A DNA stretch of 64,000 nucleotides from Minisyncoccia bacterium (lineage in GTDB: Bacteria > Patescibacteriota > Minisyncoccia > UBA6257 > 2-01-FULL-56-20). The notes under the pieces were generated by a model, which saw nothing but the letters and a program-made list of their open reading frames with translations, did no database searches and was not told where the DNA came from. Positions 10,254-37,955 of the stretch are shown here, in pieces. Location: assembly GCA_050015515.1 (NCBI GenBank), contig JBEKBG010000001.1:6028-70027 (forward strand), read 5' to 3'. The first letter of the stretch is position 1; each line of letters starts with the position of its first letter. The translations under genes were made by a program, and so were the position numbers.

Positions 10254-10324
10254 CGCGGGTATTGTATAACGGTATTACGTCACCCTTCCAAGGTGAAGTC
10301 AGGGGTTCGACTCCCCTTACCCGC
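10254..10324 (+). tRNA. tRNA-Gly (anticodon UCC)
   Basis: GCGGGTA/TACCCGC acceptor, TCACC-CTTCCAA-GGTGA anticodon arm, AGGGG-TTCGACT-CCCCT T-arm, 4-nt variable loop, discriminator U. Confidence 0.85.
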
Positions 10325-10407
10325 TCAGCAAGAAGAATATGTGGCATTCCAAAACCGGGCTCACCCTCCGGGATGGTTTTGGAATGCCACATATTCTTCT
10401 TGCTGAG
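10322..10407. repeat. palindromic element, core family copy A (34-bp perfect arms, core GGGCTCACCCTCCGGGA)
   Basis: Left arm 10322-10355 is the exact reverse complement of right arm 10374-10407. Starts at the last bases of tRNA-Gly. Confidence 0.7.
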
Positions 10408-10508
10408 CTTGATGAGGAGGCGAACGGCGGAGCAAGATTTTCAGCAGAAAAATCTTGTGAGCCGGTGCCCAGACCAAATGCGAGCGACGGCGAGCATTTG
10501 AGTCGCGG

Positions 10509-10523
10509 GCGACTCCCCTTACC
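10509..10523 (+). repeat. direct repeat of the tRNA-Gly 3' end (CGACTCCCCTTACCC)
   Basis: 15-nt identity with tRNA positions 10307-10321, located 186 bp downstream. Confidence 0.5.
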
Positions 10524-10627
10524 CACTTCCCTCAAAACAATAGTGAGTGGAGGCGTAGGGTAAAGATAAAAAAAGCCCCGCCACAGTGTAAGCACAAGGC
10601 TTTCTGTTGCGAGGCGTGACATCAAAC

Positions 10628-10909
10628 TCACACAATGATTCGATGGGCTTTCCTCATCCGGTTATAGCTGAGGACGAGCAAGGCAAGAGCGAATATCGGC
10701 GCAAACATGCGGCCCATCGCGTCAAACAGGTCGACGTCTGGCTCAGTCGTCGTTATCGCCATAGCAAGAAGGCCATAGGCAAGTAAAGTGCTGAGCGCTC
10801 CCTGGAGGTAATATTTCCAGACCATCCAGCTAAAGCACATCCTGGCTACCAAGGACAGTGCCCAGATGAGGAGATATGCTCCTACAAGCAAGGTACATGT
10901 CAACAACAT
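10628..10909 (-). CDS. small membrane protein, hypothetical
   Basis: 93 aa, three hydrophobic segments. Confidence 0.4.
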   Translation of the reverse strand: MLLTCTLLVGAYLLIWALSLVARMCFSWMVWKYYLQGALSTLLAYGLLAMAITTTEPDVDLFDAMGRMFAPIFALALLVLSYNRMRKAHRIIV

Positions 10910-11062
10910 AGTTCTCTTTTCCTTTCTCCCGCAACTGCTTAGAGTCGCGGCTCCGTTCGTTCTGCCCGCATTCTACCGTTTGACGGATGGATTGTCAAAT
11001 GGTATAAGGAGGGTAGCTCACAACGCAACAAGATTTTACATTTCCATGAATGGAGGAAAAAT

Positions 11063-11641
11063 ATGGGCTACGCCTCGACGCTGAGCGTTCAAGACCAACT
11101 TGATCTGGAAGAAGTCCTGGCGGAACTCATAGAAGAGATCTTCCTCCGCCTCCAAGATCAGGGACACCTCGCTGCTGTTTTGGGATTTTACTGCCAAGCG
11201 GTAACACGGGACGAATTGTCCGTCTTTGCAATCGCATGGGATGGTTCAGGAGAAGAATTGTTTAAAACCTCCATCAATTCCATTGCAATTCCTGTTGTTA
11301 TGGATGGGGAGCAGATGGGACGATTTCTTCGCAACCACCTCCGTCGCAGCATGATTCATAAAGGATGGAGGAATAGTAATCAGGCTCTCTCCTGCTATCA
11401 AAAGAACGACGGAGGCATACTCCTACTCTCGCCCGTCGTCGCAAGCCCGAAAAACCAGACTATCGTTCTTGAGCAAACTAGCAATTCGTGGAATGCGTAC
11501 TTTGATTCCAACCCAAAGACCAAGGGCGTTGGGAGTTCACAGGGCGAAGCCGTTGCAAGCCTGTACACCAATGAAATCGGAAAGCTGATCTTGCAGAACC
11601 CCGAGCGATTCGCCCTTACTGTTATTACGAAGCCTACCTGA
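11063..11641 (+). CDS. hypothetical protein
   Basis: GGAGG RBS 6 nt upstream of the ATG. 192 aa. No motif. Confidence 0.55.
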   Translation: MGYASTLSVQDQLDLEEVLAELIEEIFLRLQDQGHLAAVLGFYCQAVTRDELSVFAIAWDGSGEELFKTSINSIAIPVVMDGEQMGRFLRNHLRRSMIHKGWRNSNQALSCYQKNDGGILLLSPVVASPKNQTIVLEQTSNSWNAYFDSNPKTKGVGSSQGEAVASLYTNEIGKLILQNPERFALTVITKPT

Positions 11642-11765
11642 GAAAAATATGGGTAGGCTTTTTTTATCCTCAACATTTCTCGGCCATCAAATCCGGAATC
11701 ACGAATTTGCTGCCGTTTTCCCCATAAAAGGTTCTAACGTCATTGACTAGCCCGCTCACTCGCAG

Positions 11766-11793
11766 ATAAAAAAGCGGAGCATTTCTGCTCCGC
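11766..11793 (-). terminator. intrinsic terminator downstream of the 11796-12521 gene
   Basis: GCGGAGCA-TTTC-TGCTCCGC hairpin (11774-11793) with an adjacent A-run on the plus strand, giving a U-run on the minus transcript. Confidence 0.4.
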
Positions 11794-11795
11794 GA

Positions 11796-12521
11796 TCAAG
11801 AACGTTCAGATTTCTTCCCTCTCATCCACTTCCTCTGAGGCTCTCTGCCTGCCGCGCGCTCGGCTTTGCGATAGCGATTGCGCGAACGCCTGCTTTCCTT
11901 GACGAGTGCGAGCACCTCATCCGAAAGCATGATATCCCACCGCGCCCAGACCGGCTTTTTATCGGGGAGATGTCCCTCCTTGTTCAGACAACCCCACCAT
12001 GTTTTGCCGTTTATCCTCCTTCGCATTATTTTCATGCGAGCGTTGCATCGCGGGCAACACGGCGGCCTGACAATCCTCAACCAAGTGACCCATATCCGCT
12101 TAAGAAAATTTTCGACGAAATTCTTTGTGCGATGGACGTCGGCGGCAAAATATTCTTCTCTGCCGTCACGCGCACTGACGATGAGCACGCGCCCCGCGTC
12201 TTCATACCGTGGTCTGCCGACAACAATATCACTGGAAAGCAATGGAAGCTGACTGCACCTTTCCACTTTTTCCCGCTCGCACGTGGTCCACACCTTTACC
12301 GCATAGCCATGACGCGGAATACTCACAAACCCAATCTCATAGCTCGGCTCTTCAGAAAAAGAAATTTCTCTGAACCCGCGCCTTCTGAGACGGTGCGCGA
12401 TCTCACAAAAATCCCGATAGGTTACCGAAACCGCTTCTGGCACGATACCACCTCCTCTTTCTGGGAAAGATACTGCGTATGTTATACAAAAATCGCCAAG
12501 GAAAAGCAATGGCTGCGGCAA
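11796..12521 (-). CDS. hypothetical protein with C4 zinc ribbon; possible PD-(D/E)xK/NERD-like nuclease fold
   Basis: CCPRC...C..C ribbon, basic C-terminal tail, D..E.K-like pattern. Family assignment is tentative. Confidence 0.45.
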   Translation of the reverse strand: MPQPLLFLGDFCITYAVSFPERGGGIVPEAVSVTYRDFCEIAHRLRRRGFREISFSEEPSYEIGFVSIPRHGYAVKVWTTCEREKVERCSQLPLLSSDIVVGRPRYEDAGRVLIVSARDGREEYFAADVHRTKNFVENFLKRIWVTWLRIVRPPCCPRCNARMKIMRRRINGKTWWGCLNKEGHLPDKKPVWARWDIMLSDEVLALVKESRRSRNRYRKAERAAGREPQRKWMRGKKSERS

Positions 12522-12738
12522 AGACCAAAAAATATCAGAAATGAGAAAAGGGATAACCAGTTGGTTATCCCTTAGAGAGTTGCGCGGTCATAGTCACGCG
12601 CTAGACAATGTGTTGCGAATAAATTCGCATTGTGCGACCGCTTTGAAAGCGGTTTAAATTAATATTGGTGTTGTTGTTCGGTCGCTATAATGACTATACC
12701 GTGAATCCCCTCCCCGCGCCAACCGCCCCTGTGGATAA

Positions 12739-13941
12739 CTAGAGAATAACTTTAAAAAAGCGCTTTTTGCCTACCTTGATGACCTCCCCGCCTTTAAGTA
12801 CGAGCGGTGGCTGCGGGTCGCGGCACGGACGGTTATCCACATCAAATCCCCCTTGCTCAATGAGGCGGCGCGCTTCACCTCTGCTCTTGAAAACGCCGGA
12901 AGCGATGATAAGATCCACCGGCAAGATAGTGCCGCTATTTATTTTTAGCGTAGGCACGACATCCGGCACTTCGCGCCGCGAGAACGTTTTCACAAAGTTT
13001 TCCGCCGCCGCGCGAGCTTTTTTCTCTCCGTGATAGCGCTTGACCACCTCGAATGCCAAAATTTCCTTCACTTTCTTGGGATTATCGCCTCCCTTGATGC
13101 CGTCAACATATTTTTTTATCTCACGATCGGAAACGTCGGTGGCAAGATGGAAATAATTCGGAATCTGGTCATCGCGGACGGACATCACTTTGCCGAATTG
13201 GTCGTCGGGCGCATCTATAATATTGATCACGTTGCCCCAGCTGGTGGACATCTTGCGCCCGTCGGTGCCAAGCAACATTTTATTTACTAAAATATCCTGT
13301 GGCTTTTGTTTATAACGCTCCTGGATCTTTCGCCCGGCCAGAAGATTGAAGAGTTGGTCTGTGCCAGCGAGTTCCACGTCCGCTTTTATCGCCACGGAGT
13401 CGTATCCTTGCATCAGCGGATATAAAAATTCCCGCACGCTTATCTCTTTATGCGCATCCCACCGGTCCTTGAAGTTGCGCCGATCCACCATCTGCTGAAC
13501 GGTGAACGCCTCCGCCAGCTCGGAAATTTCCTGAAAGTTCAACGCGGCAAGCCATTCGCTGTTGTAGCGCACCTCCGTTTTTTTGAGATCAATGATTCTG
13601 CCTATCTGCGGAAGATAGTTTTTAAGATTCTTTTTAACCGCCGCGGCGGTAAGGAATGGTCGTTTTTCCAGCTTATCCGACGGGTCGCCCACCTGCGCGG
13701 TAAAATCGCCGATGATGAGCACGATCTTGTGCCCGAGATCCTGGAACTCTTTGAGCTTCCAAAACACCACCGCGCGGCCAATGTGGATCTTATCCCCCGT
13801 CGGGTCAATGCCAAATTTTACGCGCAGCTTTTTGCCCGAAAGCAGGGCGGCACGCAAATGCCCCTCATCAATCACTTCTTCCACGTTGCGTGAGAGCAAC
13901 GCTTCAATCTTTTCTTTGTCTATCGCTTTAGAAACCGCCAT
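12739..13941 (-). CDS. tyrS: tyrosine--tRNA ligase
   Basis: Class I HIGH-like (DPTGDKIHIG) and KMSKS (KMSTS) motifs. C-terminal S4 domain. Confidence 0.9.
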   Translation of the reverse strand: MAVSKAIDKEKIEALLSRNVEEVIDEGHLRAALLSGKKLRVKFGIDPTGDKIHIGRAVVFWKLKEFQDLGHKIVLIIGDFTAQVGDPSDKLEKRPFLTAAAVKKNLKNYLPQIGRIIDLKKTEVRYNSEWLAALNFQEISELAEAFTVQQMVDRRNFKDRWDAHKEISVREFLYPLMQGYDSVAIKADVELAGTDQLFNLLAGRKIQERYKQKPQDILVNKMLLGTDGRKMSTSWGNVINIIDAPDDQFGKVMSVRDDQIPNYFHLATDVSDREIKKYVDGIKGGDNPKKVKEILAFEVVKRYHGEKKARAAAENFVKTFSRREVPDVVPTLKINSGTILPVDLIIASGVFKSRGEARRLIEQGGFDVDNRPCRDPQPPLVLKGGEVIKVGKKRFFKVIL

Positions 13942-14018
13942 GTACCCTTATTTTACCACAAAAAAGATGATATGATAATGACAGCAGAAAGCCGCCGGAT
14001 GGCGCAGGAGGAAACACC

Positions 14019-14315
14019 ATGGCGACGCAATCGCAGTTGGAACGACCTCTTGTTGAAAGATATGTAGAGCAGATACCTATATGGATGCCCGAACGCATGG
14101 ATCCTGGAACCGTCTTTCTCCTTGAAAACCAAACCAGGCTCGGCGAAGAACAAAATCCATTTGTGGCGGTGATGTCCTGCCCGCGATGCGGAACTCTCGG
14201 CCTCGTCACGCGACGCCAATTGTACACCGGCGAATTCATGATCTGCGGTGGCGATGTTTGCTCCGCAGAGTGGAATATCAAGGAAGGAATATTCACCACC
14301 CGCGAATCTCAGTGA
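14019..14315 (+). CDS. hypothetical zinc-ribbon protein
   Basis: AGGAGG RBS. CPRC...C..C motif. Confidence 0.55.
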   Translation: MATQSQLERPLVERYVEQIPIWMPERMDPGTVFLLENQTRLGEEQNPFVAVMSCPRCGTLGLVTRRQLYTGEFMICGGDVCSAEWNIKEGIFTTRESQ

Positions 14316-14338
14316 TTTTCTCTGTTCAAAAACAAAAA

Positions 14339-14368
14339 CCCGGCGCATCGCATGCCGGGTCTTTTTTA
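14339..14368. terminator. bidirectional intrinsic terminator between convergent genes
   Basis: ACCCGGC-GCATCGCAT-GCCGGGT hairpin with T6 on the plus strand and A-run upstream. Lies between the 14019-14315 (+) gene and clpP (-). Confidence 0.5.
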
Positions 14369-14389
14369 CCTCCGTAAATATCCCCCCCC

Positions 14390-15013: not shown

Positions 15014-15031
15014 AGTGCGATGTCGTTATTT

Positions 15032-16996: not shown

Positions 16997-17014
16997 CTTT
17001 TTATTATAATATTT

Positions 17015-18268: not shown

Positions 18269-18370
18269 TTATTTAATTGTTATTTAGTTGTCTTTCTTTA
18301 AAAAAGACCGCTTTGAAAGCGGACTTACACCATCGCTTTATTGTATTTGAAAACTGCATGGAGTGTCAAG

Positions 18371-18452
18371 GGCGGAGAGAAAAGGAGGAGCGTTCTCCGA
18401 CTGGGCTCACCCTTCGGGATAGTCGGAGAACGCTCCTCCTTTTCTCTCCGCC
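18371..18452. repeat. palindromic element, core family copy B (32-bp perfect arms, core GGGCTCACCCTTCGGGAT)
   Basis: 18371-18402 is the reverse complement of 18421-18452. Lies between nusA and yraN. Confidence 0.7.
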
Positions 18453-18478
18453 GATATATTAAAAGATTAAGAGGATCG

Positions 18479-18844
18479 CTAGATGTTTTTATAATGCCGG
18501 AGGTTGGATAGCTTCCCGCCATCCAAGACTATTGCGACAAGATCAATCTGCCATCCAGCATTTTCCCAGACCAGCTCAGGATGCCGCGCCAAGAAAATAT
18601 TGGCTGCCCTGATCATTTTATGCCGTTTTGCCGAGCTGAGATTATCTTCCGGCATAAACCCGCTATTATTGTAATTACTAGTTTTAACCTCACAAAAGAC
18701 CAATACGCCGCCAGGGTCACGAGTAAGAATATCTATTTCATCGAATCTTTCCCTGTGATTTCTGGCCAATATTAAATAGGAGTTTTTTAATAAATATTGA
18801 CACGCGATATCCTCCCCTATTTTGCCGGTTTCGATATTTTTCAT
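18479..18844 (-). CDS. YraN family (UPF0102) predicted endonuclease
   Basis: Characteristic N-terminal G.GE..A..YL and PD-(D/E)xK core (FDEIDILTRDP...EVKTS). Confidence 0.8.
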   Translation of the reverse strand: MKNIETGKIGEDIACQYLLKNSYLILARNHRERFDEIDILTRDPGGVLVFCEVKTSNYNNSGFMPEDNLSSAKRHKMIRAANIFLARHPELVWENAGWQIDLVAIVLDGGKLSNLRHYKNI

Positions 18845-18851
18845 AATTAAA

Positions 18852-18985
18852 GAATTTTAATTGTGTTTTCCGTAAAACATCATTAAAAATGTTTTTGGGC
18901 TTTATTTTAAATCAAATTAAAAATAAAATGCTATTTTATCTCCAAGATGGCCATTTTGAATTTTAATTGTGTTTTCCGTAAAACA
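18852..18985. repeat. pair of 28-bp direct repeats (GAATTTTAATTGTGTTTTCCGTAAAACA) in an AT-rich ORF-free region
   Basis: Copies at 18852-18879 and 18958-18985, in the yraN / dksA-like divergent intergenic region. Confidence 0.5.
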
Positions 18986-19080
18986 ATTTTGAAAAACATT
19001 TTTGTTTTACAGTAGGTTTTATGGGCTTACCGGGTTTTGCCGTATTATTTGGATTTAATCCGGCAATCCGGCAAACCATG

Positions 19081-19150
19081 CGGATGAGGAGGGGCATTCT
19101 CCGACTGGGCTCACCCTTCGGGACAGTCGGAGAATGCCCCTCCTCATCCG
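19081..19150. repeat. palindromic element, core family copy C (26-bp arms, core GGGCTCACCCTTCGGGAC)
   Basis: Inner 46 bp nearly identical to copy B. Outer arms differ but are perfectly complementary. Confidence 0.7.
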
Positions 19151-19178
19151 CGCAGTCTTATTAGTTTAATAGGGGAAT

Positions 19179-19259
19179 CCGAAGGCAACATGATGGGCAT
19201 ATCTTTGAGGACCATTAATCTTCTGGTCCTCAAAGATATGCCCATCATGTTGCCTTCGG
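19179..19259. repeat. unique 36-bp perfect hairpin (loop TTAATCTTC)
   Basis: 19179-19214 is the reverse complement of 19224-19259. Lies 29 bp upstream of the dksA-like start. Confidence 0.65.
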
Positions 19260-19287
19260 AGCCATCTCGCCGTATTCTTATAGAACT

Positions 19288-19620
19288 ATGAACCAAAACC
19301 AATTAAAAGAATATAAAATCGCACTAGAAAAGGAACGGGTAATGATCGCAGCAGAGATTGCACGCGACGAAAAGCCTGTTGATTTTGGCAATGACATTGA
19401 CCACGACGATGAGGCGACCGATAAGTCGGAAGAGGTAGGGGATCAGCTCGCAGCGGCGCGATCTCTCAAAGACCGTTTGAACGAAATTGGTATCGCGCTG
19501 GGGAAAATCCAAAATGGTGTGTACGGTGTTTGCGAAAAATGTGGGAAAACCATTGAGCACGAGATTCTTGCTATTGATCCCGAATCCCGTTTCTGCAAAG
19601 CGTGCAAGCTCGCTCATTAA
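19288..19620 (+). CDS. DksA/TraR family C4-type zinc-finger protein
   Basis: Coiled-coil N-terminus and C-terminal CxxC-17-CxxC. Confidence 0.75.
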   Translation: MNQNQLKEYKIALEKERVMIAAEIARDEKPVDFGNDIDHDDEATDKSEEVGDQLAAARSLKDRLNEIGIALGKIQNGVYGVCEKCGKTIEHEILAIDPESRFCKACKLAH

Positions 19621-19728
19621 TCTTAATCACCTGGATCTAAAAACTCCCACCCCCTCTTCTTGAACCGTCGAGTCTGTTCGCTAGGTTCAAAAAGAGGATG
19701 GGTATTTTAGATTCTTTTAATGTGAGAT

Positions 19729-21264: not shown

Positions 21265-21288
21265 CCGGCGCGGCTTATTCCTTGGCGC

Positions 21289-21792: not shown

Positions 21793-21857
21793 GCTTAATG
21801 GCTTATACTCCTTATTGAGTTTTTCGATAGTCGTACTAATAGATTCATCCTACCATA

Positions 21858-23764: not shown

Positions 23765-23768
23765 TTTT

Positions 23769-24584: not shown

Positions 24585-24592
24585 CTATATTA

Positions 24593-26842: not shown

Positions 26843-26844
26843 CA

Positions 26845-29427: not shown

Positions 29428-29435
29428 ACCTCAAA

Positions 29436-30398: not shown

Positions 30399-30426
30399 TC
30401 GCGGGCTCGGTTTACAATAGTAGGTA

Positions 30427-31029
30427 ATGCAATATCAAGTTCCCCAATTCATCGAGACCGAAGACAAGGTTGTCGGACCGTTCTCGCTCCGACAATTCGC
30501 ATACGTGGGCGTCGCGGCGCTCATAAGCGGCGGCGCTTATTTTTTCCTGCAGACGTGGCTATTCCTTATCATCGCACTTGTGTTGGTGGGCGGATCGCTC
30601 GCGCTTTCGTTCGTAAAGATCAACGGCCGGTCGCTTATTAAAGTGGCCACCGCGGCCTTTTATTATTATTGGAAACCTCAGCTGTATGTGTGGAAACCGG
30701 ACCACCCCATGATCGCCCAGCAACCGCATGCGCCCGCGACAGCGAGGAAATTGCTTCCTGTTGCCGATAGTGCTCCCGAAGGCTTCCTCCATAAGATCTG
30801 GGGGAGCTCACAACACGCTCCCGCAGCCGTGAGGGCGTTGCCGCCCATCGCCGCGATCGCTTCCGGAGATTCCCTCCATAAGAGCTGGGGAAACCTGCAG
30901 ACCGGTACGCCGGAGACAAAAGAGATGTCCGACCGCCAGTTTTTGGAGAAAAAAATGATGGAGCGTTACCAGATATTCCGGCGGTTGAGCGGCGACCGTG
31001 CGGCGGCACGGCGCGTGGATTATCGTTAG
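30427..31029 (+). CDS. VirB3/PrgI-like small membrane protein
   Basis: About 100-aa N-terminal module with two TM helices (FAYVGVAALISGGAYFF..LFLIIALVLVGGSLAL) immediately upstream of VirB4, as in Gram-positive prgI-prgJ. Confidence 0.45.
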   Translation: MQYQVPQFIETEDKVVGPFSLRQFAYVGVAALISGGAYFFLQTWLFLIIALVLVGGSLALSFVKINGRSLIKVATAAFYYYWKPQLYVWKPDHPMIAQQPHAPATARKLLPVADSAPEGFLHKIWGSSQHAPAAVRALPPIAAIASGDSLHKSWGNLQTGTPETKEMSDRQFLEKKMMERYQIFRRLSGDRAAARRVDYR

Positions 31030-31032
31030 AAA

Positions 31033-31734
31033 TTGTGCGAAAATAGAATCATGGCAATCCCACAAATGCAGGATGCGGGGAGTTCCCTGGACCTTGTCGA
31101 CATCAAGGAGATCAAACAGAACACGGTCGTCGTAAAGGACGGCAGCTTCCGGCAGGTCATCATGGTAGGGGGTGTCAACTTTTCATTGAAGTCCGAAACG
31201 GAGCAGAATATCATCACGCAAGCGTATCAGACGTTTCTGAACGGTATTGATTTCCCCCTACAGATCCTTATCCACTCCCGCAAGGTGAATATCGATAAGT
31301 ATATCGAGGCGCTGGCTGCCCGGAAGGAGATAGAACAATCTCCCATCCTGCAAAACCAGATCGACGAATACAGCAAGTTCGTGCAGGGATTTGTGGAAAA
31401 GAACGCAATTATGGAAAAGATCTTTTTGGTGGTCGTCTCGTTTTATCCCGTTTCGGTGCTCCCCAACGCAAAAAAAGTTTCTGTGGCGATCCCATTTTTT
31501 GGGAAAAAGAAAATAAGTCCGGCGGAAACAGCCCAGCGCACGGAGGAAGCGGAAAAGATGTTTGGCGAGAACCTTGCGCAGTTAAGCCAACGCACGACCC
31601 AGGTGACGGGGGGGCTTCTGAACATCGGCCTTGAGACGACGGTGCTCAACGATGAACAGCTCATTGAGCTCTTCTATAATTTTTACAATCCACAGACCAT
31701 CGAACATAAAAAAACGCCCGTGGCGCGCGAATGA
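31033..31734 (+). CDS. VirB4-family ATPase, N-terminal domain (ends at an in-frame TGA)
   Basis: Same reading frame as the 31747 ORF. Only TGA 31732-31734 plus 4 codons separate them. Combined length ~815 aa matches VirB4/TrbE. Confidence 0.55.
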   Translation: MCENRIMAIPQMQDAGSSLDLVDIKEIKQNTVVVKDGSFRQVIMVGGVNFSLKSETEQNIITQAYQTFLNGIDFPLQILIHSRKVNIDKYIEALAARKEIEQSPILQNQIDEYSKFVQGFVEKNAIMEKIFLVVVSFYPVSVLPNAKKVSVAIPFFGKKKISPAETAQRTEEAEKMFGENLAQLSQRTTQVTGGLLNIGLETTVLNDEQLIELFYNFYNPQTIEHKKTPVARE

Positions 31735-31746
31735 TATCATTACCCC

Positions 31747-33483
31747 ATGCCAGACCAGCCACAAGAAAATAATTTCAGCGACGTAAAGAAGATCATCGCG
31801 CCGGCGGGCGCGCAGGTGTTCCCCAACTACCTGAAGATCGGCGACAAGCTCGCAAAGACGTTCTTTGTGTTCTCCTATCCGCGCTACCTTTCCACAGGCT
31901 GGTTCGAACCGCTCATCAACCTGCCGAACCTTTTTGACATCTCGATCTTCATCAACCCGATCGACACCGGGAGCGCGCTCAAGAATCTCCGTAAAAAAGC
32001 CGGACAGCTGGAGTCGCAAATGAACGATGAGCAGGACAAGGGCCTCGTGCGAAATCCGGTGCTGGAAACCGCGATCAACGATGTTGAGGGCCTGCGTGAT
32101 TCATTGCAACAGTCCGAGGAAAAGCTTTTCGACACCGGCGTATATATTACGGTCTACGCGGATACCATGGACGAGCTCGCACGGCTGGAAAGCAAGCTCG
32201 TCACGATGATGGAAGCAAAGCTGATCTACCTTAAGCCCGCGCTCTTTGAGCAGCTTGAGGGATTGTCTTCCATCCTGCCGATCAATAACGACAAGCTCCA
32301 GATCTACTCGCCGATGAACACCGGCCCGATCTCATCATTTTTTCCATTTGTCTCCGAAGATCTCTCCTCCAATGAGGGGATCATGTATGGCATCAACCTG
32401 CATAACAGCAACCTGGTGATCTTCGACCGTTTCTCGTTGGAAAACGCAAATGAAGTGGTGTTCGCCAAATCCGGCTCCGGCAAATCGTACACCACCAAGC
32501 TGGAGATCCTGCGCTCGCTCATGGCGGGTATTGACATGGTGATCGTGATCGACCCGGAAAACGAGTATGACCGCCTCGCAAAGACGTTCGGCGGGAGCAT
32601 GTTCAACATCTCTTTGTCTTCGCACGAGCACATCAATCCGTTCGACGTACCGCCGATCCCGGAGGGAGAAACACCGTCGGATGTTCTGCGATCGCATATC
32701 GTGAACATCGCAAGCCTGTTGAAGCTCATGCTCGGCAAGCTCTCGCCGGAGGAAGACGCGCTGCTCGATCGCGCGATCACGGAAACGTACGCCTCCCGCG
32801 AGATCGTCGCCGATACGGATTTTATCGGCAAAGAACCGCCGCTCTTGGGCGACCTGGAAACGGTACTGCGGAATCTGGAAGGCGGGCGCGGCCTTGCGGA
32901 AAAGCTCTATAAATACACCAAGGGAAGTTTTGCGGGCTTCTTGAACCAGCCAACCAATATCGATGTCAATAATCGCCTTATTGTGTTCTCCATCCGCGAC
33001 CTGGAAGAAGAGCTCCGCCCGCTCGGTATGTTCGTTGTGCTCAACTACATCTGGAACCTCATCCGCGCCAAGCTCGCCAAGCGATTATTGTTCATTGATG
33101 AGGCGTGGATCATGATGCAGAACGAAGACAGCGCGACGTTCTTGTTCGGCCTCGTCAAGCGCGCGCGCAAATATTATCTCGGCGTCACGACGATCACGCA
33201 GGATGTGGAAGACTTCTTGCGGTCGCCTTACGGGCGCCCGATCGTCACCAACTCTTCGCTGCAATTGCTGCTCAAGCAGGCGCCCGCCACGATCGATATT
33301 GTCGCCAAAGCGTTCGATCTCACCGAAGCGGAAAAGAACTTCTTGCTCGGCGCGGAGATCGGCACCGGCATCTTCTTCGCCGGCAAGCGCCACGTGGCCA
33401 TCCAGATCGTCCCGTCGTATTACGAAGATCAAATCATCACGACGAATCCCGAGCAAATCCTGGAGGAAAAAAGTGAGCTATAA
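31747..33483 (+). CDS. VirB4/TrbE/PrgJ-family ATPase, C-terminal ATPase domain
   Basis: Walker A AKSGSGKSYTTK, Walker B LLFIDEAW (DEAW is typical of VirB4), GVTTITQD motif. Confidence 0.8.
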   Translation: MPDQPQENNFSDVKKIIAPAGAQVFPNYLKIGDKLAKTFFVFSYPRYLSTGWFEPLINLPNLFDISIFINPIDTGSALKNLRKKAGQLESQMNDEQDKGLVRNPVLETAINDVEGLRDSLQQSEEKLFDTGVYITVYADTMDELARLESKLVTMMEAKLIYLKPALFEQLEGLSSILPINNDKLQIYSPMNTGPISSFFPFVSEDLSSNEGIMYGINLHNSNLVIFDRFSLENANEVVFAKSGSGKSYTTKLEILRSLMAGIDMVIVIDPENEYDRLAKTFGGSMFNISLSSHEHINPFDVPPIPEGETPSDVLRSHIVNIASLLKLMLGKLSPEEDALLDRAITETYASREIVADTDFIGKEPPLLGDLETVLRNLEGGRGLAEKLYKYTKGSFAGFLNQPTNIDVNNRLIVFSIRDLEEELRPLGMFVVLNYIWNLIRAKLAKRLLFIDEAWIMMQNEDSATFLFGLVKRARKYYLGVTTITQDVEDFLRSPYGRPIVTNSSLQLLLKQAPATIDIVAKAFDLTEAEKNFLLGAEIGTGIFFAGKRHVAIQIVPSYYEDQIITTNPEQILEEKSEL

Positions 33484-33494
33484 TTTCTTCACAT

Positions 33495-34298
33495 ATGGAT
33501 GAAGGAGAAAAACCGTTCCCGATAGAATTCATCGTCATCCTTTTGATCGTCGCTGTGGCGAACGACGTCGCGGAAATTTTTTTCGACCTCCTTGACTTCA
33601 CCGGCGTAGGCGTCGCCGGAGAAGCGATCATGGAGCCGGCAAATTTTGTTTTGGACTTTTTCTTTACCGGAATTTTTTGGTGGAAGGTTGGCCCGGGAGG
33701 CGGCACTATAACGCAATACATCGGAGATATTCTCGAACCATTTCTTATTCCGGGGAGAACAATCTCGGTGGGGCTCGGTATGTGGATAGCGAACCATCCC
33801 AATTCCGCGATAGGGGAAGCGGCGAATACTGCGGTCTCGCTTGAAAGCGGCAACGTCGCGGGTGCGACAGGTGAAGTTGAGGGAATCGCGGGAACTGCGG
33901 AAAAAGAAGCGGCTGATGCCGAGAAGAAACTTCAAGGCGGGAGTGCGAGTGGTACCGGCGAAGGCGGTGAAGGCGGATTAGAAGCTGCTAAAGAAGGCCA
34001 AACTGCCGAATCGAAATCTCCTGAAGCCCAAAGCGGCGGAGAAAAAGAAAACGCCCCCGAAGAAGACGTATTTAAAAATCCCTACGAAAATCCCGTGGGA
34101 ACTGCCGGAGAAGAGCTTAACGAACCACCCGAGGAAGAATTCCACGAAGGGGAAGGATTTAAGCCAAAAGAAGAACCGCAGGAAAACGAGATCCAATCAC
34201 AGAAAGTCGTTGATATTGCGAGCCGCCGGCCGCCATCGCCAAAAAATGAGAACCGCGCAGGTGATGCCGACGCCGAAGACCTCGCAGAAGCGGCATAG
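33495..34298 (+). CDS. membrane protein with highly acidic Gly/Glu-rich C-terminal tail
   Basis: Two to three N-terminal TM helices. C-terminal ~150 aa E/G/A/K-rich and disordered. Confidence 0.5.
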   Translation: MDEGEKPFPIEFIVILLIVAVANDVAEIFFDLLDFTGVGVAGEAIMEPANFVLDFFFTGIFWWKVGPGGGTITQYIGDILEPFLIPGRTISVGLGMWIANHPNSAIGEAANTAVSLESGNVAGATGEVEGIAGTAEKEAADAEKKLQGGSASGTGEGGEGGLEAAKEGQTAESKSPEAQSGGEKENAPEEDVFKNPYENPVGTAGEELNEPPEEEFHEGEGFKPKEEPQENEIQSQKVVDIASRRPPSPKNENRAGDADAEDLAEAA

Positions 34299-34333
34299 CC
34301 TCGTCCATTGGGGGGGGCGCCGATTGGCGGAAT

Positions 34334-35083
34334 TTGTTATACTTAAGGAAAGATATGTTCTCGCGAATTGTGCTTAAAAAGATGGCGCTTGTGGGTTTTA
34401 TCGCGATTGCCCTCGTAGCCGGTGGCACCTTTCTTTTAGTAACATCAATAGCTCACGCACAGACGGCATCATCGCCCACATTTCTTATCACGTGGAAAAC
34501 GACGGGGAGCTATATCCCATCGTTTTATATCGGTAAGGCCTTGTCAACCTATGGGTCGAAGATTACCGCGTCGCTCGAGTTGGTCTCGCCGCAGGGAAAG
34601 ATCCTTGATCTCAGCGGGCAGACGATCTATTGGTACGTGAATGACACCTTAGTGGGCGGTGGAGTGGGTGTTCAACAAGTAACATTCCCGCCTGTCGGTG
34701 ACGCACCGAATACCGCCAACCTACGCGTGACGCTCCCGAACTATAATGGCGCATATCTTATTCACGCGATCAATATCCCTATGGTTCTACCGGAGGCGGT
34801 GATCTACGCGCCATACCCTAATGGGCAGTTTACACAGAATCCGCTGACGGTGCAGGCTATCCCGTATTTCTTTAACATCGCCGATCCTTCCGGCCTTTCC
34901 TACGCGTGGTCGGTAGATGACCAAGCCGGCTCCAACGCCGAAAATCCGGAGACGGCGCAGGTCACGTTGCCGCAGGGCACGCAGTCGGGAACCGGCGTGA
35001 ACGCATCGCTCAGCGTTGAGAATCCCAACGACTCCACCGTCGCCACCGCGAGCGCCAACTTAACCTACGAAAGCCAGCTATGA
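34334..35083 (+). CDS. bitopic secreted protein (topology compatible with VirB8-like, not established)
   Basis: Short cytoplasmic tail, one TM, beta-rich ~200-aa extracytoplasmic domain. Confidence 0.45.
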   Translation: MLYLRKDMFSRIVLKKMALVGFIAIALVAGGTFLLVTSIAHAQTASSPTFLITWKTTGSYIPSFYIGKALSTYGSKITASLELVSPQGKILDLSGQTIYWYVNDTLVGGGVGVQQVTFPPVGDAPNTANLRVTLPNYNGAYLIHAINIPMVLPEAVIYAPYPNGQFTQNPLTVQAIPYFFNIADPSGLSYAWSVDDQAGSNAENPETAQVTLPQGTQSGTGVNASLSVENPNDSTVATASANLTYESQL

Positions 35084-35805
35084 AGAAATTTTTTTATAGC
35101 TTAGCTGCGATTGTCTCAAATTTCTTCCTTTTGTCCGCCGCGCATGCGGTGACGATTAGTATGGCCATCCCGGGCGGCCCAAACGCTTATCCCACCAGCA
35201 CCGGTCCTGGCGGTTTTGTCGCCAACTTCTACCAGTTTGCACTGATGATCGGCGGGGTTCTTGCTTTCGGGGTTATTGTGTATGGAGGAGTGCGATATAT
35301 GGCATCCGCAGGCAATCCTTCGGGGCAAAGCGATGCGAAAGAATGGATAGAGGCGGCTCTGTTGGGATTATTACTACTTGTGGGCGCATATTTTATCCTT
35401 AATGTGGTGAATCCACAGCTGACGAATCTTGTGCCGCCAACGCTCACGCCGGTAAATATCCAAACGCCGGCCGCCGCCACAACACAAACGGAGATACAAA
35501 CCGCTATCGCTGCTTGTGTCGCTGCTTGTCAAGATGCAAGCTGTACCGCTGCATGTAATGCCCAGGGATCATCTTTGCAATCGGCGTTCAGCGGAGCATG
35601 TAGCGCGAACACTTGTCCATCAGGCCAGACGTGTCAAAATGACGGAAGTGGAGGGCATATGTGCCTTAATATCAACCCCTTATCAACAAACCCTCTGGGC
35701 TCTACACCTGCAGGAGATTACTCAAGCTGTGCGCAAGCCAACTGCGCATCGGGCAAAAACTGCGTAGTAGATCTCAGTAATAGCAAATACTACACCTGCA
35801 TGTAA
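35080..35805 (+). CDS. VirB2/TrbC-like pilin with Cys-rich C-terminal extension
   Basis: Signal peptide (AHA|V), two long hydrophobic helices separated by a short polar loop (…VRYMASAGNPSGQSDAKEW…), then a T/Q-rich linker and 12 Cys in the last ~95 aa. Confidence 0.45.
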   Translation: MKKFFYSLAAIVSNFFLLSAAHAVTISMAIPGGPNAYPTSTGPGGFVANFYQFALMIGGVLAFGVIVYGGVRYMASAGNPSGQSDAKEWIEAALLGLLLLVGAYFILNVVNPQLTNLVPPTLTPVNIQTPAAATTQTEIQTAIAACVAACQDASCTAACNAQGSSLQSAFSGACSANTCPSGQTCQNDGSGGHMCLNINPLSTNPLGSTPAGDYSSCAQANCASGKNCVVDLSNSKYYTCM

Positions 35806-35828
35806 TACCCAGCGAAAAATCTATATCT

Positions 35829-37154
35829 ATGAAACGCTATCTCTATATTATAATCGGCATCATCGTCGCGGCGGCCATCGTAATATTGGTTCTTTTCCTG
35901 ATAAAAAATAATGCGGCGAGCACGACGATCACCACCTCGGGGACGACCGGCGGTTCGCTTCCGGCGGCGGGTACGCAAGGGAGTGGTGGATCGGGAGTAA
36001 CGAGCAGCGTTGCCACACTCGGCCTCTCGCCGATAGCAAGTGGCACCAGTGCGAACACAAACAACCAAACGGTTGTGCAAAACTTTGGCGTGCTTTCACA
36101 AAGCCCCGCTTTGGATTATTTCGTTGACGCTCAAAATAATATCACCGCCATCCAACCGACGGGCGCCATTATCACAATAAAAAACGGCCAGACGACGACA
36201 GTAAATTCCTCGACGATTGACGGCATCATCTCCGCAAGCTTTTCCTATGATGGCAAAAAGATCGTTGTGAATTATGGCGATCCGTCCGATCCGCGGGCGG
36301 GCGTTTATGATGTTGCGACGAACGCGTGGACGGCACTGCCGCAGGGAATTCTCTCGCCCCAATGGTCTCCGGCCAATAATTACCAGATCGCATACCTTGC
36401 GGTACCGAGCGCCGGAAAGCTTACGCTCGCTACCGTTAACGCCGCGAATTTAAAAACTACGCCGACGACCCTCCTTACGCTTAACGCGAACGATCTCGCG
36501 CTCCAATGGCCCACGGCGAGCGAATTTATCCTTTCCGATAAGCCGACTTCGCAGAACGCAGGGTCGGTGTGGGTTTATAATTCGTCGGCTGGAACACTGG
36601 AGCCCCTCATATATGAGGTTCCTGGCGCGGAGGGAATATGGAGTCATAATGCCGCCATTCCTTATGGCCTGACCTTCTTTAATAATCCGTCCGGCCAAGG
36701 GGGGAATACATTACAGCTACAGGTTTTTTCTGGAAATTTGCCGACTCAGCCGCTCGTTTTCTCAACCTTGCCTTCCAAGTGCGCTTTTAACACCGAACTC
36801 ATGCCGGTTGCGACATCTACCGCTGGCGCGGCGACGTCCACGACGGCTTCGTCCACCGCAAAGATATCGGCGAAAGTCGCCGCAACTTCCACGCCGTACC
36901 TCGCGCTCTATTGCGGCATTCCACGCAGCTCGAGCGGGTTCTCCTCCGCACACCTGCCGGACGCCTATAATACGATGGCGCTCTTTACCTCCGACGATAT
37001 TTATAAAATAAACACCGCGACGGGCGCGGAACAGGTGCTTTGGAGCGATGCCACACAGAACATGGACGTCTCTGATGTAAAGTTCTTCAATGATGCGTTG
37101 TTCTTTGTAAACCGCTATGATCAAAAACTGTACGGTCTTACTTTTAGTAATTAA
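35829..37154 (+). CDS. secreted Thr/Ser/Gly/Ala-rich protein (beta-propeller-like?), last gene of the operon
   Basis: N-terminal TM/signal and a long beta-rich domain. No motif. Confidence 0.5.
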   Translation: MKRYLYIIIGIIVAAAIVILVLFLIKNNAASTTITTSGTTGGSLPAAGTQGSGGSGVTSSVATLGLSPIASGTSANTNNQTVVQNFGVLSQSPALDYFVDAQNNITAIQPTGAIITIKNGQTTTVNSSTIDGIISASFSYDGKKIVVNYGDPSDPRAGVYDVATNAWTALPQGILSPQWSPANNYQIAYLAVPSAGKLTLATVNAANLKTTPTTLLTLNANDLALQWPTASEFILSDKPTSQNAGSVWVYNSSAGTLEPLIYEVPGAEGIWSHNAAIPYGLTFFNNPSGQGGNTLQLQVFSGNLPTQPLVFSTLPSKCAFNTELMPVATSTAGAATSTTASSTAKISAKVAATSTPYLALYCGIPRSSSGFSSAHLPDAYNTMALFTSDDIYKINTATGAEQVLWSDATQNMDVSDVKFFNDALFFVNRYDQKLYGLTFSN

Positions 37155-37171
37155 TCAACTACGCAATAGTT

Positions 37172-37264
37172 AACCGATAGCATAACAAAATACCCTCTTG
37201 TTTCGAACAATCCCGAAGGGTGAGCCCGTTCGAAACAAGAGGGTATTTTGTTATGCTATCGGTT
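37172..37264. repeat. palindromic element, core family copy D (37-bp perfect arms, core in reverse orientation TCCCGAAGGGTGAGCCC)
   Basis: 37172-37208 is the reverse complement of 37228-37264. Right arm overlaps the last codons and stop of jag. Lies between convergent genes. Confidence 0.7.
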
Positions 37265-37685
37265 TAATGATGACATACCGCTCCTTTCCTTCTCCCGCGC
37301 TCTCGGTCTTTACATCCGGATGTACCGCGAGCTCCACGTGAACCAAGCGGCGCTCGTAGGAATTCATCGCGGGAAGCGAGATCTCCGTCTTCGTTGCTGT
37401 TGCTTTTTTTGCCGCCGCGCGGGCAAGCTCCGCAATCAGCCGTTCACGGTCATGCCGATAATTATTTATGTCGAGGAATATCGATTCGGTGCGATTTTTT
37501 TTCGCGACCATTTGGAGAACGTGATTCACCGCATCAACGATCGCGGGAAGATTCTCCCTCACCATCTCCTGATCCTCGTAAATAAAAACCGACCCCCGAT
37601 GTTCATCTATCTTTATCTCCAGGTGATAATCGCGGAACCCGATAAGATCTAATGTTTTTTTAATGAATGATTCCCAGTTGTCCAT
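37251..37685 (-). CDS. jag: Jag/KhpB (R3H + KH domain) RNA-binding protein
   Basis: Jag_N, KH and R3H pattern (ERRLVHVELAVHPDVKTESAGEGKERYVII). Conserved position after yidC. Confidence 0.8.
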   Translation of the reverse strand: MDNWESFIKKTLDLIGFRDYHLEIKIDEHRGSVFIYEDQEMVRENLPAIVDAVNHVLQMVAKKNRTESIFLDINNYRHDRERLIAELARAAAKKATATKTEISLPAMNSYERRLVHVELAVHPDVKTESAGEGKERYVIIKPIA

Positions 37686-37860
37686 GCGTTCCCGTCATCA
37701 TTCCATATTTCGCCACAAAAATCAAGCGATGCGCAGAAAGAACTTATCGCCATCTCGCTCCAACGTAAGAACGTCCACTCGCTCAATGGCGATAAGTTCT
37801 TTCTACCCCCTTGGTTTTTCCACCGAAAATTTTCTCTCTTAAATATTAAAGATGGTGGCG

Positions 37861-37955
37861 AAGTACGGCGCATAGCAAAATACCTGTTTGTTTGGAACAA
37901 TCCCGAAGGGTGAGCCCGTTCCAAGCAAGTAGGTATTTTGCTATGCGCCGTACTT
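37861..37955. repeat. palindromic element, core family copy E (38-bp arms with 3 mismatches, core TCCCGAAGGGTGAGCCC)
   Basis: About 80% identical to copy D over 70 bp. Right arm overlaps the last codons and stop of yidC. Confidence 0.65.

Follow-up and report, generated by a model that had tools for sequence, protein, structure and literature searches.

Long palindromes with conserved centres and variable, self-complementary arms in a Minisyncoccia genome

Results

Hairpins sharing a common core

We identified five long hairpins (copies A to E) with the common core GGGCTCACCCT(T/C)CGGGA in the window, the 64-kb stretch of DNA analysed here. All five lie within 1 nt of where an earlier sequence-only reading had placed them, and the shared 17-nt core described there was recovered. 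At one mismatch or fewer it occurs five times (+ strand at 10357, 18403 and 19107; - strand at 37211 and 37901), versus 0.11 expected from shuffled sequence, and none of 100 shuffles reached five. The arms (28-39 nt) had been described as almost perfectly self-complementary yet different between copies, and this is the case: they are 100% complementary in copies A to D and 92% in copy E, where all three mismatches are G.T on the + strand. Identity between copies B and C is 91% over 58 nt, and between copies D and E it is 87% over 77 nt.

Copy A (10323..10408, + strand) has 34-bp perfect arms and the centre GGGCTCACCCTCCGGGAT, a UCCG variant, and begins on the last bases of tRNA-Gly(UCC), at its 3' end. 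Orthologues are present in the relatives L190 and L200, and similar copies follow other tRNA-Gly genes in L186 and L152. The L186 copy has arms identical to those of copy A, but follows another tRNA-Gly gene, and its flanks differ; the L152 palindrome reaches 7 nt into the CCA end of the tRNA-Gly. Copy B (18371..18452, + strand), whose 32-bp arms are perfect, is placed between the stop codon of yraN (18479) and the -35 box (18369-18364, - strand) of the nusA promoter, with its centre antisense to the yraN transcript. A copy is present at this site in L142 and L148 and absent in L125. Copy C (19080..19151, + strand; 28-bp perfect arms) is located in the divergent region between yraN and a dksA-like gene, and adjoins highly conserved non-coding DNA. 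Copy D (37172..37264, - strand; 37-bp perfect arms) is situated between the convergent genes for a 441-aa ORF and jag, covers the last 14 nt of jag, and shows compensated substitutions in L203, L208 and L147. Copy E (37860..37956, - strand; 39-nt arms) takes in the final 16 nt of yidC (KYGA-stop); in L203 this site carries another centre, GTTATTCTTATATCTA. The placement of A, C and D, and the overlap of D and E with gene ends, are as first reported.

Sister palindromes with other centres

The five copies are real, but the extent of the repeats had been undercounted: at least seven further long palindromes in the 64 kb have the same build as A to E and different centres. The core family (family 1) is one of at least five palindrome families in this genome that differ only in the central module. 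One palindrome (19178..19260), with the centre TTAATCTTC and perfect arms of 37 bp, is found immediately upstream of the dksA-like start. L125 retains the outer arms at the orthologous site, around a family-1 centre, and in L142 the centre is deleted. Another (approximately 19630..19712; centre GTCGAGTCTGTTCGCTA), at the 3' end of the dksA-like gene, is imperfect in the window and perfect in L148; the L142 centre is inverted relative to both, and in L125 a canonical terminator stands at precisely the position where its relatives have the palindrome. A third (37735..37804), between yidC and jag, has 19-bp arms and a 32-nt centre with a mini-hairpin. It is present in L203, replaced in L208 and absent in L147. 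The palindrome at 45090..45167 has 31-bp perfect arms around the centre GTTATTCTTATATCTA; compared with L208 the centre is identical at 16/16 positions, and the arms are about 70% identical (by eye).

Three palindromes have large centres. The first (41877..42006; 37-nt arms, 56-nt centre with two mini-hairpins) has an outer arm made up of the last codons and stop of dnaN. The second (49060..49202; 41-nt arms, 61-nt centre) overlaps the stop of a gene for a PilB-like ATPase, and the third (49933..50084; 28-bp perfect arms, 96-nt centre) immediately follows a gene for a 227-aa protein.

Distribution beyond the window

Scans of public data, of the kind suggested with the first description, identified the exact core in 44 hairpin copies (40 non-redundant) at 38 loci. 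These scans added about 40 non-redundant copies. The sources are three GTDB MAGs, including Ca. Harrisonbacteria and Ca. Parcubacteria, and peat and soil metagenomes. The same core occurs in MAGs of differing taxonomic names and at about 25 distinct sites. The members of the family are near-perfect palindromes of 70-100 bp, and the family is restricted to a group of uncultured bacteria that are probably Parcubacteria-like. Copies fall into subfamilies by arm type. Most family-1 copies were retrieved using a pattern that required the exact core, and the invariance of the core is therefore partly a retrieval effect. Family-1 copies found without this pattern include decayed ones (the orthologues of copy C in L142 and L125, and L133:13859).

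Pairing and growth of the arms

Pairing is kept while sequence drifts, as had been proposed. In 34 copies, 98.9% of stem cells are paired, compared with 64.6% in shuffles and at most 49.5% with a slid partner, and 23 of the 24 stem pairs have changed on both sides. Only 3 of 816 stem cells are G.U. Among 1265 pairs there are 22 mismatches (10 of A.C type, 7 of G.T type and 5 other), so that G.U pairing is no commoner than A.C mismatching, which argues against a strand-specific structured RNA. Orthologous arms are 75% identical, and four-fold sites are 61-74% identical in five closer relatives and 40% in L125. Pairing in orthologous arms exceeds 98% although the stems turn over at about the neutral rate. 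A 6-nt indel that separates L190 from the window copy is mirrored in both arms. The arms look like DNA kept complementary through arm-to-arm copying rather than strand-specific RNA. Alternatively, selection on both transcribed strands could produce Watson-Crick-only pairing without a DNA mechanism.

One pair of related sites captures a filled and an empty state: a palindrome is present at L124:4012-4101, and none at the orthologous site in L119. The outer 11 nt of the right arm in L124 (TCACCCATTCG) repeat, in inverted form, the final codons of the gene itself (CGAATGGGTGA), and codons orthologous to those duplicated are present in the empty genome. Palindromes grow outward in this way, inverted duplication carrying them into the final codons of ancestral genes. 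Composition of the arms is skewed. In the 5' arm, 20-32 nt from the centre, the frequency of A is about 0.5, of G about 0.3 and of T about 0.05; the 5' outer arm is purine/A-rich and the 3' arm therefore T/C-rich.

Structure and conservation of the centre

The family-1 centre (18-19 nt) comprises the 7-nt single-stranded GGGCTCA, a 3-bp mini-hairpin (CCC-TNC-GGG) and AT. It is surrounded by about 13 bp of semi-conserved inner stem, with half-sites flanking it in the order GSNTTYYNNRACC, centre, GGTYNNRRAANSC, and then by the outer stem. The mini-hairpin is capped by UNCG when one strand folds and by GNA when the complementary strand does, and all four bases are found at the N of T-N-CG. This variation is expected of UNCG tetraloops in RNA, but fits a GNA triloop on the opposite strand equally well.

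Centres that were not picked by the search pattern are 83% identical in family 1 (91/110) and 90% in the other families (133/147), in a tally made by eye. Most centres are kept above the neutral rate given by four-fold sites (61-74% in the closer relatives). Two centres fold as a small covarying hairpin: in L092 the family-1 mini-stem has changed from CCC/GGG to TCG/CGA, and in the GT...CTA family from TGAT/ATCA to CGAG/CTCG. The L092 variants keep the mini-hairpin and can no longer form the GGG-CUCA-CCC helix, which contradicts the switch between two mutually exclusive folds that had been suggested.

The orientation of the centre relative to the upstream gene is mixed. At 10 co-directional sites (analyst's ORF calls) the centre is in sense orientation to the upstream gene at about 4 and antisense at about 6. 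Centres have been exchanged with outer arms retained at the 5' site of the dksA-like gene and the 3' site of yidC. The copies at site B in L142 and site E in L208 are chimeras: the centre is intact, but the arm to its left comes from one copy and the arm to its right from another.

Location at gene ends

The palindromes are located mostly at gene 3' ends, with few copies in divergent promoter regions. They cover, or come straight after, the stop codons of jag, yidC, dnaN, pilB and the 227-aa gene, in addition to the 3' end of tRNA-Gly. A simple terminator scan called none of the long palindromes as such; the sole overlap is a 5-bp stem inside the centre of copy A. The elements have no clean U-run, and ordinary short terminators also occur in the genome. 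For copy C and its neighbour in the divergent region, a terminator would be unexpected unless an unannotated RNA gene is present.

Discussion

We think it somewhat probable, from comparison of the sequences, that these elements are lineage-restricted, REP/BIME-like DNA palindromes that are maintained by template switching and are putative orientation-independent 3'-end hairpins. The MITE- or REP-like foldback element of the first description is supported: the copies are dispersed, numerous and lineage-restricted, their stems covary massively, and they are present, absent or replaced among close relatives. During replication, the nascent strand would fold back and one arm would be copied from the other. 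Fold-back copying would keep the arms perfect, mirror indels between them, extend the palindromes outward, and flip or exchange centres. Template switching homogenises arms and inverts spacers, and has lengthened one inverted repeat from 5 to 16 bp (PMC8604942; PMC7202029). The resulting bidirectional hairpins may end or protect transcripts at gene 3' ends. New copies may arise through copying of centre modules into intergenic sites or into existing palindromes. The centre may be kept as a compact, fast-folding cap for both strands, or as the target of some recognising factor. A hairpin cap leaves the conservation of GGGCTCA unexplained, and a single recognising factor can hardly account for conserved centres of at least five different kinds.

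We consider it unlikely, though worth weighing, that the family is a strict non-autonomous mobile element (a MITE, or a REP/REPIN moved by a Y1/HUH-type transposase), with the centre and inner stem as a transposase recognition site on single-stranded DNA and the association with gene ends incidental. Arm-type subfamilies, presence, absence or replacement among close relatives, the identical element after a different tRNA-Gly gene, orientation independent of transcription, and the decay at site C speak for mobility, and a folded centre with a covarying mini-stem suits single-stranded recognition. However, the classical MITE hallmarks are lacking: target-site duplications, for which a test had been proposed, do not exceed chance, and the outer arms are not conserved between copies. 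There is no GTAG/CGTC tag, and no transposase or integrase domain was identified among the Pfam-annotated genes at 7-50 kb of the window. Furthermore, a genome that is probably small would have to encode several enzymes to serve at least five unrelated centres, and in situ conservation of several centres above the neutral rate would not be expected of inert selfish copies.

In E. coli, BIME-1/RIP (RIB) elements are pairs of inverted REPs with a conserved IHF-binding motif between them. On this model, the palindromes would be binding sites on duplex or cruciform DNA for a nucleoid-associated protein, gyrase or a recombinase. An asymmetric, 18-bp centre with above-neutral conservation and semi-conserved inner half-sites is consistent with such a site; chimeric arms around an intact centre also fit, and orientation independence is natural at the DNA level. 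We nevertheless find this improbable. Mini-stem covariation favours a folded, single-stranded centre, which as read from sequence has no IHF-type consensus; several unrelated centres call for several proteins, and no candidate protein was identified.

It is also doubtful that the palindromes are functionless products of chance enlarged by template switching, with similar centres reflecting youth or gene conversion. That process alone accounts for the perfection of the arms, their mirrored indels and outward growth, and the flips (PMC8604942), some copies do decay, and the search method inflated core invariance. However, the same core recurs in differently named MAGs and at about 25 distinct sites, and centres of families outside the search are 90% identical in situ versus 64-74% at four-fold sites. 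Skewed arm composition, 3'-end placement and scarcity in divergent regions also argue against this explanation.

A strand-specific structured RNA (cis-regulatory or small RNA) whose apical loop binds protein or acts as a GGG-CUCA-CCC/CCC-UUCG-GGG switch is very improbable, even with a conserved centre and covarying mini-stem, copies in transcribed 3' regions and a very stable predicted fold (-64.6 kcal/mol, z = -14), given the Watson-Crick-only stems, a centre that is antisense to the upstream gene at about 6 of 10 co-directional sites, the loss of the alternative helix in L092, mirrored indels and near-neutral arm turnover that point to DNA-level copying, and an Rfam search of the hairpins that matched no family.

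Comparison with known systems

Several known systems share features with the palindromes that we interpret as template-switch-maintained 3'-end hairpins. Template-switched inverted repeats (quasipalindromes and hairpin-associated inversions) show the same arm homogenisation, spacer inversion and lengthening (PMC8604942, PMC7202029, PMC5941160), but are usually isolated, with arms of 5-20 bp, whereas the palindromes in the window form a dispersed family with a common centre. Palindromic repeats in the organelles of Volvox carteri have a constant loop (TAAA/TTTA) and variable stems (4-37 nt), are intergenic, include palindromes nested in palindromes, and have been read as selfish DNA (PMC2670323). 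Their loops are unstructured (3-5 nt) and they make up about 80% of non-coding organelle DNA, whereas the window family, in a bacterial genome that is compact, has a structured 18-nt centre and is associated with gene ends.

Bacterial MITEs (Correia/NEMIS, RUP, MITEAba12) are likewise small, non-autonomous and intergenic, and may act as terminators or processing sites (PMC6382973, PMC10969869). In MITEs the terminal inverted repeats are conserved, the interior varies and the target site is duplicated; the window family shows the reverse pattern, with no duplication. TIGR stem-loop arrays, which belong to RNA-guided systems with Tas/Nop-domain proteins in phages and parasitic bacteria, also have variable yet consistently palindromic stems around a central part (PMC12045711). 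However, these are tandem arrays beside tas, with two variable spacers of 8-12 nt between box C/D motifs as loops, whereas members of the window family are dispersed and single, lack spacers and share an 18-nt centre that does not vary.

BIME-1/RIP elements share with the window family a large palindrome, a conserved asymmetric central motif and a position after genes. The arms of those elements are conserved REPs and the centre carries the IHF consensus, whereas the window family has variable arms and a centre that lacks an IHF-like consensus and folds with a covarying mini-stem. The REP/BIME/REPIN elements of Enterobacteria and Pseudomonas, mobilised by RAYT, are multi-copy short intergenic palindromes (PMC3337134, PMC3733652, PMC3184786). 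They too lie mostly at gene 3' ends, sometimes over stop codons and often clustered in twos or threes, have been proposed to terminate transcription or stabilise mRNA, and show turnover among related genomes. Within the annotated part of the window, we found no RAYT gene. Conservation in REPs lies in the stem and the GTAG/CGTC tag, with a free loop; in the window family it lies in the centre, with variable stems and no enrichment of a tag. The window family resembles E. coli REP elements with the pattern of conservation reversed.

Palindromes of the window

We identified all five family-1 hairpins described by the sequence-only reading, at 10323-10408 (copy A), 18371-18452 (copy B), 19080-19151 (copy C), 37172-37264 (copy D) and 37860-37956 (copy E). 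Their core, GGGCTCACCCT(T/C)CGGGA, occurs five times in the window with at most one mismatch, where shuffled sequences are expected to yield 0.11 occurrences. Arms are 100% complementary over 28-37 nt in four of the five copies, and those of copy E pair over 39 nt with three mismatches. The closer relationships within the set were also recovered (B and C are 91% identical over 58 nt, D and E 87% over 77 nt), as was the placement of the copies. Copy A begins where tRNA-Gly ends, copy C lies between the divergent genes yraN and a dksA-like gene, copy D is between convergent genes and overlaps the final 14 nt of jag, and copy E overlaps the final 16 nt of yidC. Copy B has the yraN stop on one side and, on the other, a strong promoter-like site of nusA with a -35 box that abuts the palindrome.

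A palindrome scan that was not seeded on the core identified 63 long hairpins in the window and related loci. Several families share the build of family 1 yet have other conserved centres. These include a TTAATCTTC(C) centre (19178-19260), a centre with GT and CTA on either side of a 4-bp mini-hairpin (45090-45167 and approximately 19630-19712), a 32-nt centre with an ACGT-AAGA-ACGT mini-hairpin (37735-37804), and large centres of 56-96 nt with two small hairpins each (41877-42006, 49060-49202 and 49933-50084). CPR/Patescibacteria genomes are small and usually called repeat-poor; here there are approximately 12 long palindromes in 64 kb, about one per 5 kb.

Two contigs from other assemblies of the same population (loci L222 and L223) terminate precisely where the 19178-19260 palindrome has its foot (window position 19260), which suggests that the palindromes break short-read assemblies. 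A repeated module of about 50 nt with two small hairpins occurs at 10415-10460, 41914-41969, 49101-49161 and 56210-56262. It is the centre of long palindromes in two places and free-standing elsewhere, and has covarying stems (GCCGC-GAAG-GCGGC; GATTTTTC-AGCA-GAAAAATC versus CCGGCC-AGAA-GGCCGG). No match to the module was identified in the Rfam gathering-score scan of the whole window.

Other features near the palindromes were noted. On the minus strand at 18308-18369, a canonical terminator (CCGCTTTCAAAGCGG and a T-run) comes after a promoter-like TTGACA-18-TACAAT and immediately before the nusA start. The arrangement is conserved in three related loci (L142, L148 and L125) and looks like a transcription attenuator of the nusA leader. 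The intergenic region from yraN to the dksA-like gene (18845-19078) is near-invariant among relatives of 73-90% identity. A 45-nt stretch (GAATTTTAATTGTGTTTTCCGTAAAACA...) recurs within it as a direct repeat, at 18852 and 18958. The region could comprise operator sites or an unannotated RNA gene, either of which would account for the position of palindromes C and 19178-19260. The 15-nt CGACTCCCCTTACCC, the 3' (T-arm/acceptor) part of tRNA-Gly (10308-10322), recurs about 190 nt downstream at 10510-10524. The two occurrences flank palindrome A plus a two-hairpin module, and the second is missing from locus L190; the duplication looks like a scar of integration into the tRNA-Gly 3' end. A type IV secretion-like cluster at 30427-35805 (PrgI, TraC-like, VirB4/TraG-like ATPase, T4SS pilin) adjoins the rnpA-yidC-jag / dnaA-dnaN origin region. 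Genes for a PilB-like ATPase, a ComM-like (Mg-chelatase family) protein, RuvC and RuvB are present in the window as well.

Family 1 in other genomes

The same architecture is present in three MAGs (including Ca. Harrisonbacteria and Ca. Parcubacteria) and in metagenomes. The window itself lies within a 156-kb ENA contig, and its organism, judging from these relatives, probably belongs to the Parcubacteria/CPR. The genome scan, with one genome per species and the bare 17-mer as query, gave three genuine loci of 118 among the matches listed, the other approximately 115 being chance matches from GC-rich genomes. With YGGGCTCACCCTNCGGGAYNG as the query, 96 loci were obtained from metagenomes. Across the fetched loci and the window, long arms flank 44 core sites in 38 sources (40 non-redundant), mainly from peat and soil samples. 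All four bases occur among the copies at the N of the core. Judged from sequence, DNA uptake sequences were set aside; for these the arms would be needless, and the core never occurs outside a hairpin. Five matches to the 17-mer in viral contigs were also set aside as chance, given the lack of flanking arms and the 52-67% G+C of the contigs. Five contigs that share an identical NusA are identical throughout, except that one has 1 mismatch in 16.5 kb, and thus strain-level variation is uninformative.

In relatives, a family-1 palindrome is found about 80 nt downstream of a tRNA-like piece; none is there in the window. The piece (52238-52314, plus strand, 77 nt) is identified as tRNA-Ser(cga) by ARAGORN, and in Rfam it matches only the two ends of tmRNA (19.6 bits versus a gathering score of 47). 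Around it are about 350 nt of conserved non-coding DNA (52009-52361), which six to seven related loci share at 73-88% identity and which may be an unusual or split tmRNA.

Evolution of the arms

The window aligns collinearly with several metagenome loci, at 73-90% identity. Their identity to it at four-fold sites is 0.61-0.74 (L142, L208, L203, L147 and L148), and 0.40 for L125. Orthologous arms have a mean identity of 75% (range 61-91%), which is divergence at about the neutral rate, and pairing is still above 98%; pairing is indeed kept while sequence drifts, as first proposed. Independent compensatory mutation would be too slow for this, and arm-to-arm copying suffices. Compensated transversions occur at site D in L147, and L190 differs from the window at the tRNA-Gly site by a mirrored 6-nt indel. 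Some chimeric or imperfect copies also occur (L142 copy B, L208 copy E and L145).

Palindromes also grow into the genes that they follow. At L124:4012-4101, the foot of the far arm is an inverted copy (TCACCCATTCG, from CGAATGGGTGA) of the last codons of the gene; L119, where the site is empty, has orthologous final codons of the same length. At tRNA-Gly the palindrome reaches 7 nt into the gene in L152 (the acceptor/CCA end), 2-3 nt in the window, and not at all in L186. At dnaN, yidC, jag and pilB, the foot likewise consists of the final codons of the gene. Construction from the genes' own last codons explains how palindromes overlap stop codons without gene damage, the four proteins being unchanged.

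Centres flip, and are lost or exchanged. The window and L148 have the same 17-nt centre at the dksA 3' site, and L142 carries its exact reverse complement there. Upstream of dksA, the centre is TTAATCTTC in the window and L148, and in L125 a family-1 centre lies within the same outer arms. In L142 the centre is lost and a short perfect palindrome remains; there (approximately 5800-5840, orthologous to window 19178-19260), a symmetric deletion of centre and inner arms leaves CTCCGAAGGCAATATGCT-GG-AGCATATTGCCTTCGGAG, which fits expectation for cleavage or slippage at the hairpin tip. The yidC 3' site has a GTTATTCTTATATCTA centre in L203 and a family-1 centre in the window, L208 and L147.

Template switching in replication is documented to homogenise arms, invert spacers and lengthen inverted repeats (PMC8604942; PMC7202029). 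As homogenised arms, a flipped centre and lengthened repeats are all found here, we infer that replication template switching keeps the palindrome arms perfect. The syntenic comparisons provide an unusually clear natural record of the process, with mirrored indels, a flipped centre and growth.

An alternative is that the palindromes are strictly mobile, mobilised by a hairpin-specific transposase. Consistent with this, they are dispersed and differ in presence between relatives in three cases (site B, empty in L125; the 37735 site, empty in L147 and with another hairpin in L208; and L124:4012, empty in L119). In L186, arms identical to those of copy A lie behind another tRNA-Gly gene, with unrelated DNA downstream. 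The MITE- or REP-like foldback element of the sequence-only reading is itself supported by this dispersal and turnover, strict mobility aside. Target-site duplications, a proposed check, were not found (the longest direct repeats across junctions equal those of a shuffled control), nor were conserved terminal repeats. Strict mobility is therefore unlikely.

Conservation and folding of the centre

Family-1 scans demanded the exact core, so its invariance partly reflects how copies were found. Second copies, present in loci that were fetched for another copy, were not selected in this way. Their centres are 83% identical to orthologues (91/110, tallied by eye) and range from intact (site D in L208, 18/19, and in L147) to decayed (site C in L142 and L125; L133:13859). 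In the other families, used in no search, the centres are 90% identical (133/147, also by eye; e.g., 16/16, 31/32 and 8/9). Four-fold sites of the same genomes are 64-74% identical. Thus, constraint acts on the centres, with some copies excepted.

The centres fold and their mini-stems covary. One locus (L092) has TCG/CGA instead of CCC/GGG and retains GGGCTCA and AT, and the mini-stems of the GT...CTA family are TGAT/ATCA, CGAG/CTCG or TAT/ATA. The L092 variant abolishes the GGG-CUCA-CCC alternative, so the two-way switch originally proposed is unsupported. A free N is as compatible with a GNA triloop on one strand as with a UNCG tetraloop on its complement, and hence cannot tell the strand. 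Beyond the centre, the inner stem is semi-conserved (reading inward in the 5' to 3' direction, G-S-N-T-T-Y-Y-N-N-R-A-C-C). Further out, 20-32 nt away from the centre, A and G prevail in the 5' arm (A about 0.5, T about 0.05), and the 3' arm is consequently T/C-rich (T about 0.5).

Conserved centres could reflect a DNA-binding-protein site of the BIME-1/RIP type. The architecture, a conserved central motif between inverted palindromic units, is matched here, and that alone; the IHF consensus WATCAANNNNTTR of the BIME-1/RIP centre is absent from ATCCCGNAGGGTGAGCCC and its complement, as read from the sequence. We consider such a site improbable. That the palindromes are a neutral by-product is very improbable given the constraint on the centres.

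Pairing of DNA type

In a gap-free alignment of 34 copies, 98.9% of stem cells are in standard pairs, compared with 64.6% in column shuffles and at most 49.5% with a slid partner, and 23 of the 24 stem pairs have changed on both sides. Such excellent covariation statistics put the palindromes at risk of being mistaken for structured RNAs. A selected RNA stem is expected to tolerate G.U far better than A.C. However, G.U accounts for 3 of 816 stem cells, and the 22 mismatches among 1265 pairs (40 copies) comprise ten of A.C type, seven of G.T type and five others. As G.U is not favoured over A.C on either strand, the covariation is real but of DNA type.

Orientation of the centre relative to the upstream gene is mixed (approximately four sense, at tRNA-Gly, yidC and two others; approximately six antisense, at yraN, the tmRNA-like block and others). 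This tally used our own ORF calls at co-directional sites, and an apparent sense bias vanished once convergent sites were set aside. Orientation also differs among copies on one side of the dnaA/rnpA origin region. At the gathering score, two tRNAs alone reach the Rfam 15 threshold in the whole window; below it, the hairpins matched generic miRNA-precursor models on both strands (including in an E-value-threshold search of 18300-19300). A strand-specific RNA, the structured-RNA alternative of the sequence-only reading, is thus highly improbable, with no Rfam family, no preference for G.U and mixed orientation.

Proposed role at gene 3' ends

Nearly all of the window elements overlap a stop codon or come immediately after one (jag, yidC, dnaN, pilB, a gene of 227 aa, the dksA-like gene and yraN), and one follows the 3' end of tRNA-Gly. 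Few are in divergent regions. At the dksA 3' site, L125 has a canonical terminator (10-bp GC-rich stem and T6) exactly at the palindrome position of its relatives. Based on these positions, the L125 terminator and the A-rich/T-rich outer arms, an orientation-independent role at transcript 3' ends is most likely, either bidirectional termination and/or protection from 3' exonucleases, a role also proposed for REPs. The outer arms (T/C-rich 3', A/G-rich 5') are without a clean U-run, and a consensus terminator scan of the window called none of the long palindromes. Ordinary terminators are also present in the genome. Should the palindromes serve this lineage to terminate transcripts or protect their 3' ends, they would be relevant to the way in which transcription units are bounded in unculturable organisms.

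A 3'-end role leaves conservation of the specific 18-nt centre unexplained. The centre may be kept as a fast-folding cap for both strands, or via recognition by some factor.

A broader reading, which we offer tentatively and regard as unlikely, is that these are a previously undescribed class of CPR element, i.e., self-extending palindromes whose foldable central modules are heritable, exchangeable units of gene-end punctuation. There would be at least five kinds of module, all of them more conserved than expected at the neutral rate. Each would spread as a copy, placed in the middle of a palindrome already present or at a site behind a gene, gain flanking sequence as a new stem through inverted duplication, and be recognised by a putative hairpin-specific factor; the system would serve as the gene-end punctuation of the lineage. 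We found no description of such elements in the CPR/Patescibacteria literature searched.

Comparison with known systems

Several systems were rejected. TIGR-Tas arrays are tandem, lie by a Nop-domain tas gene, and have loops with two variable spacers between box C/D motifs (PMC12045711). The copies here are scattered one by one and their 18-nt centre does not vary; among annotated window genes, none with a Nop domain was identified. Judged from sequence, integron attC sites have conserved boxes at the foot rather than the centre, the 18-bp segment is too short for recombinase-mediated inversion as in invertons, and parS, IHF and K-turn motifs have no match. The likeness of GGGCUCA-CCC to the 16S rRNA hairpin GGGCUCAACC was judged coincidental.

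Like REP/REPIN sequences, these are multi-copy short intergenic palindromes located mainly after genes. In REPs, however, the stem is conserved and the loop free, whereas here the stem pairs vary and the centre is kept. The GTAG/CGTC tag of the REP palindrome foot is not enriched (1-3 occurrences per tag in 40 copies, versus about 1.7 by chance), and no RAYT (Y1 transposase) Pfam domain was identified among genes called across 7-50 kb of the window. The palindromes would work like REP/BIME elements but lack the conserved stem and the tag that define REPs. Presence/absence polymorphism between relatives is shared with MITEs. MITEs have terminal inverted repeats common to copies and to a parent IS; here each site has its own outer arms, derived in part from adjacent genes by copying, and no parent IS was seen. 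The conservation pattern is inverted relative to both REPs and MITEs, with the centre fixed and the stems free.

Intrinsic bidirectional terminators are likewise positioned right after stops or RNA gene ends. Inverted repeats shaped by template switching show all three behaviours seen here between relatives (homogenisation, spacer inversion and arm lengthening). For a constant loop, variable stem and nested palindromes, the nearest analogue is the selfish palindromes of Volvox organelles (PMC2670323). The elements are well documented at the DNA level.
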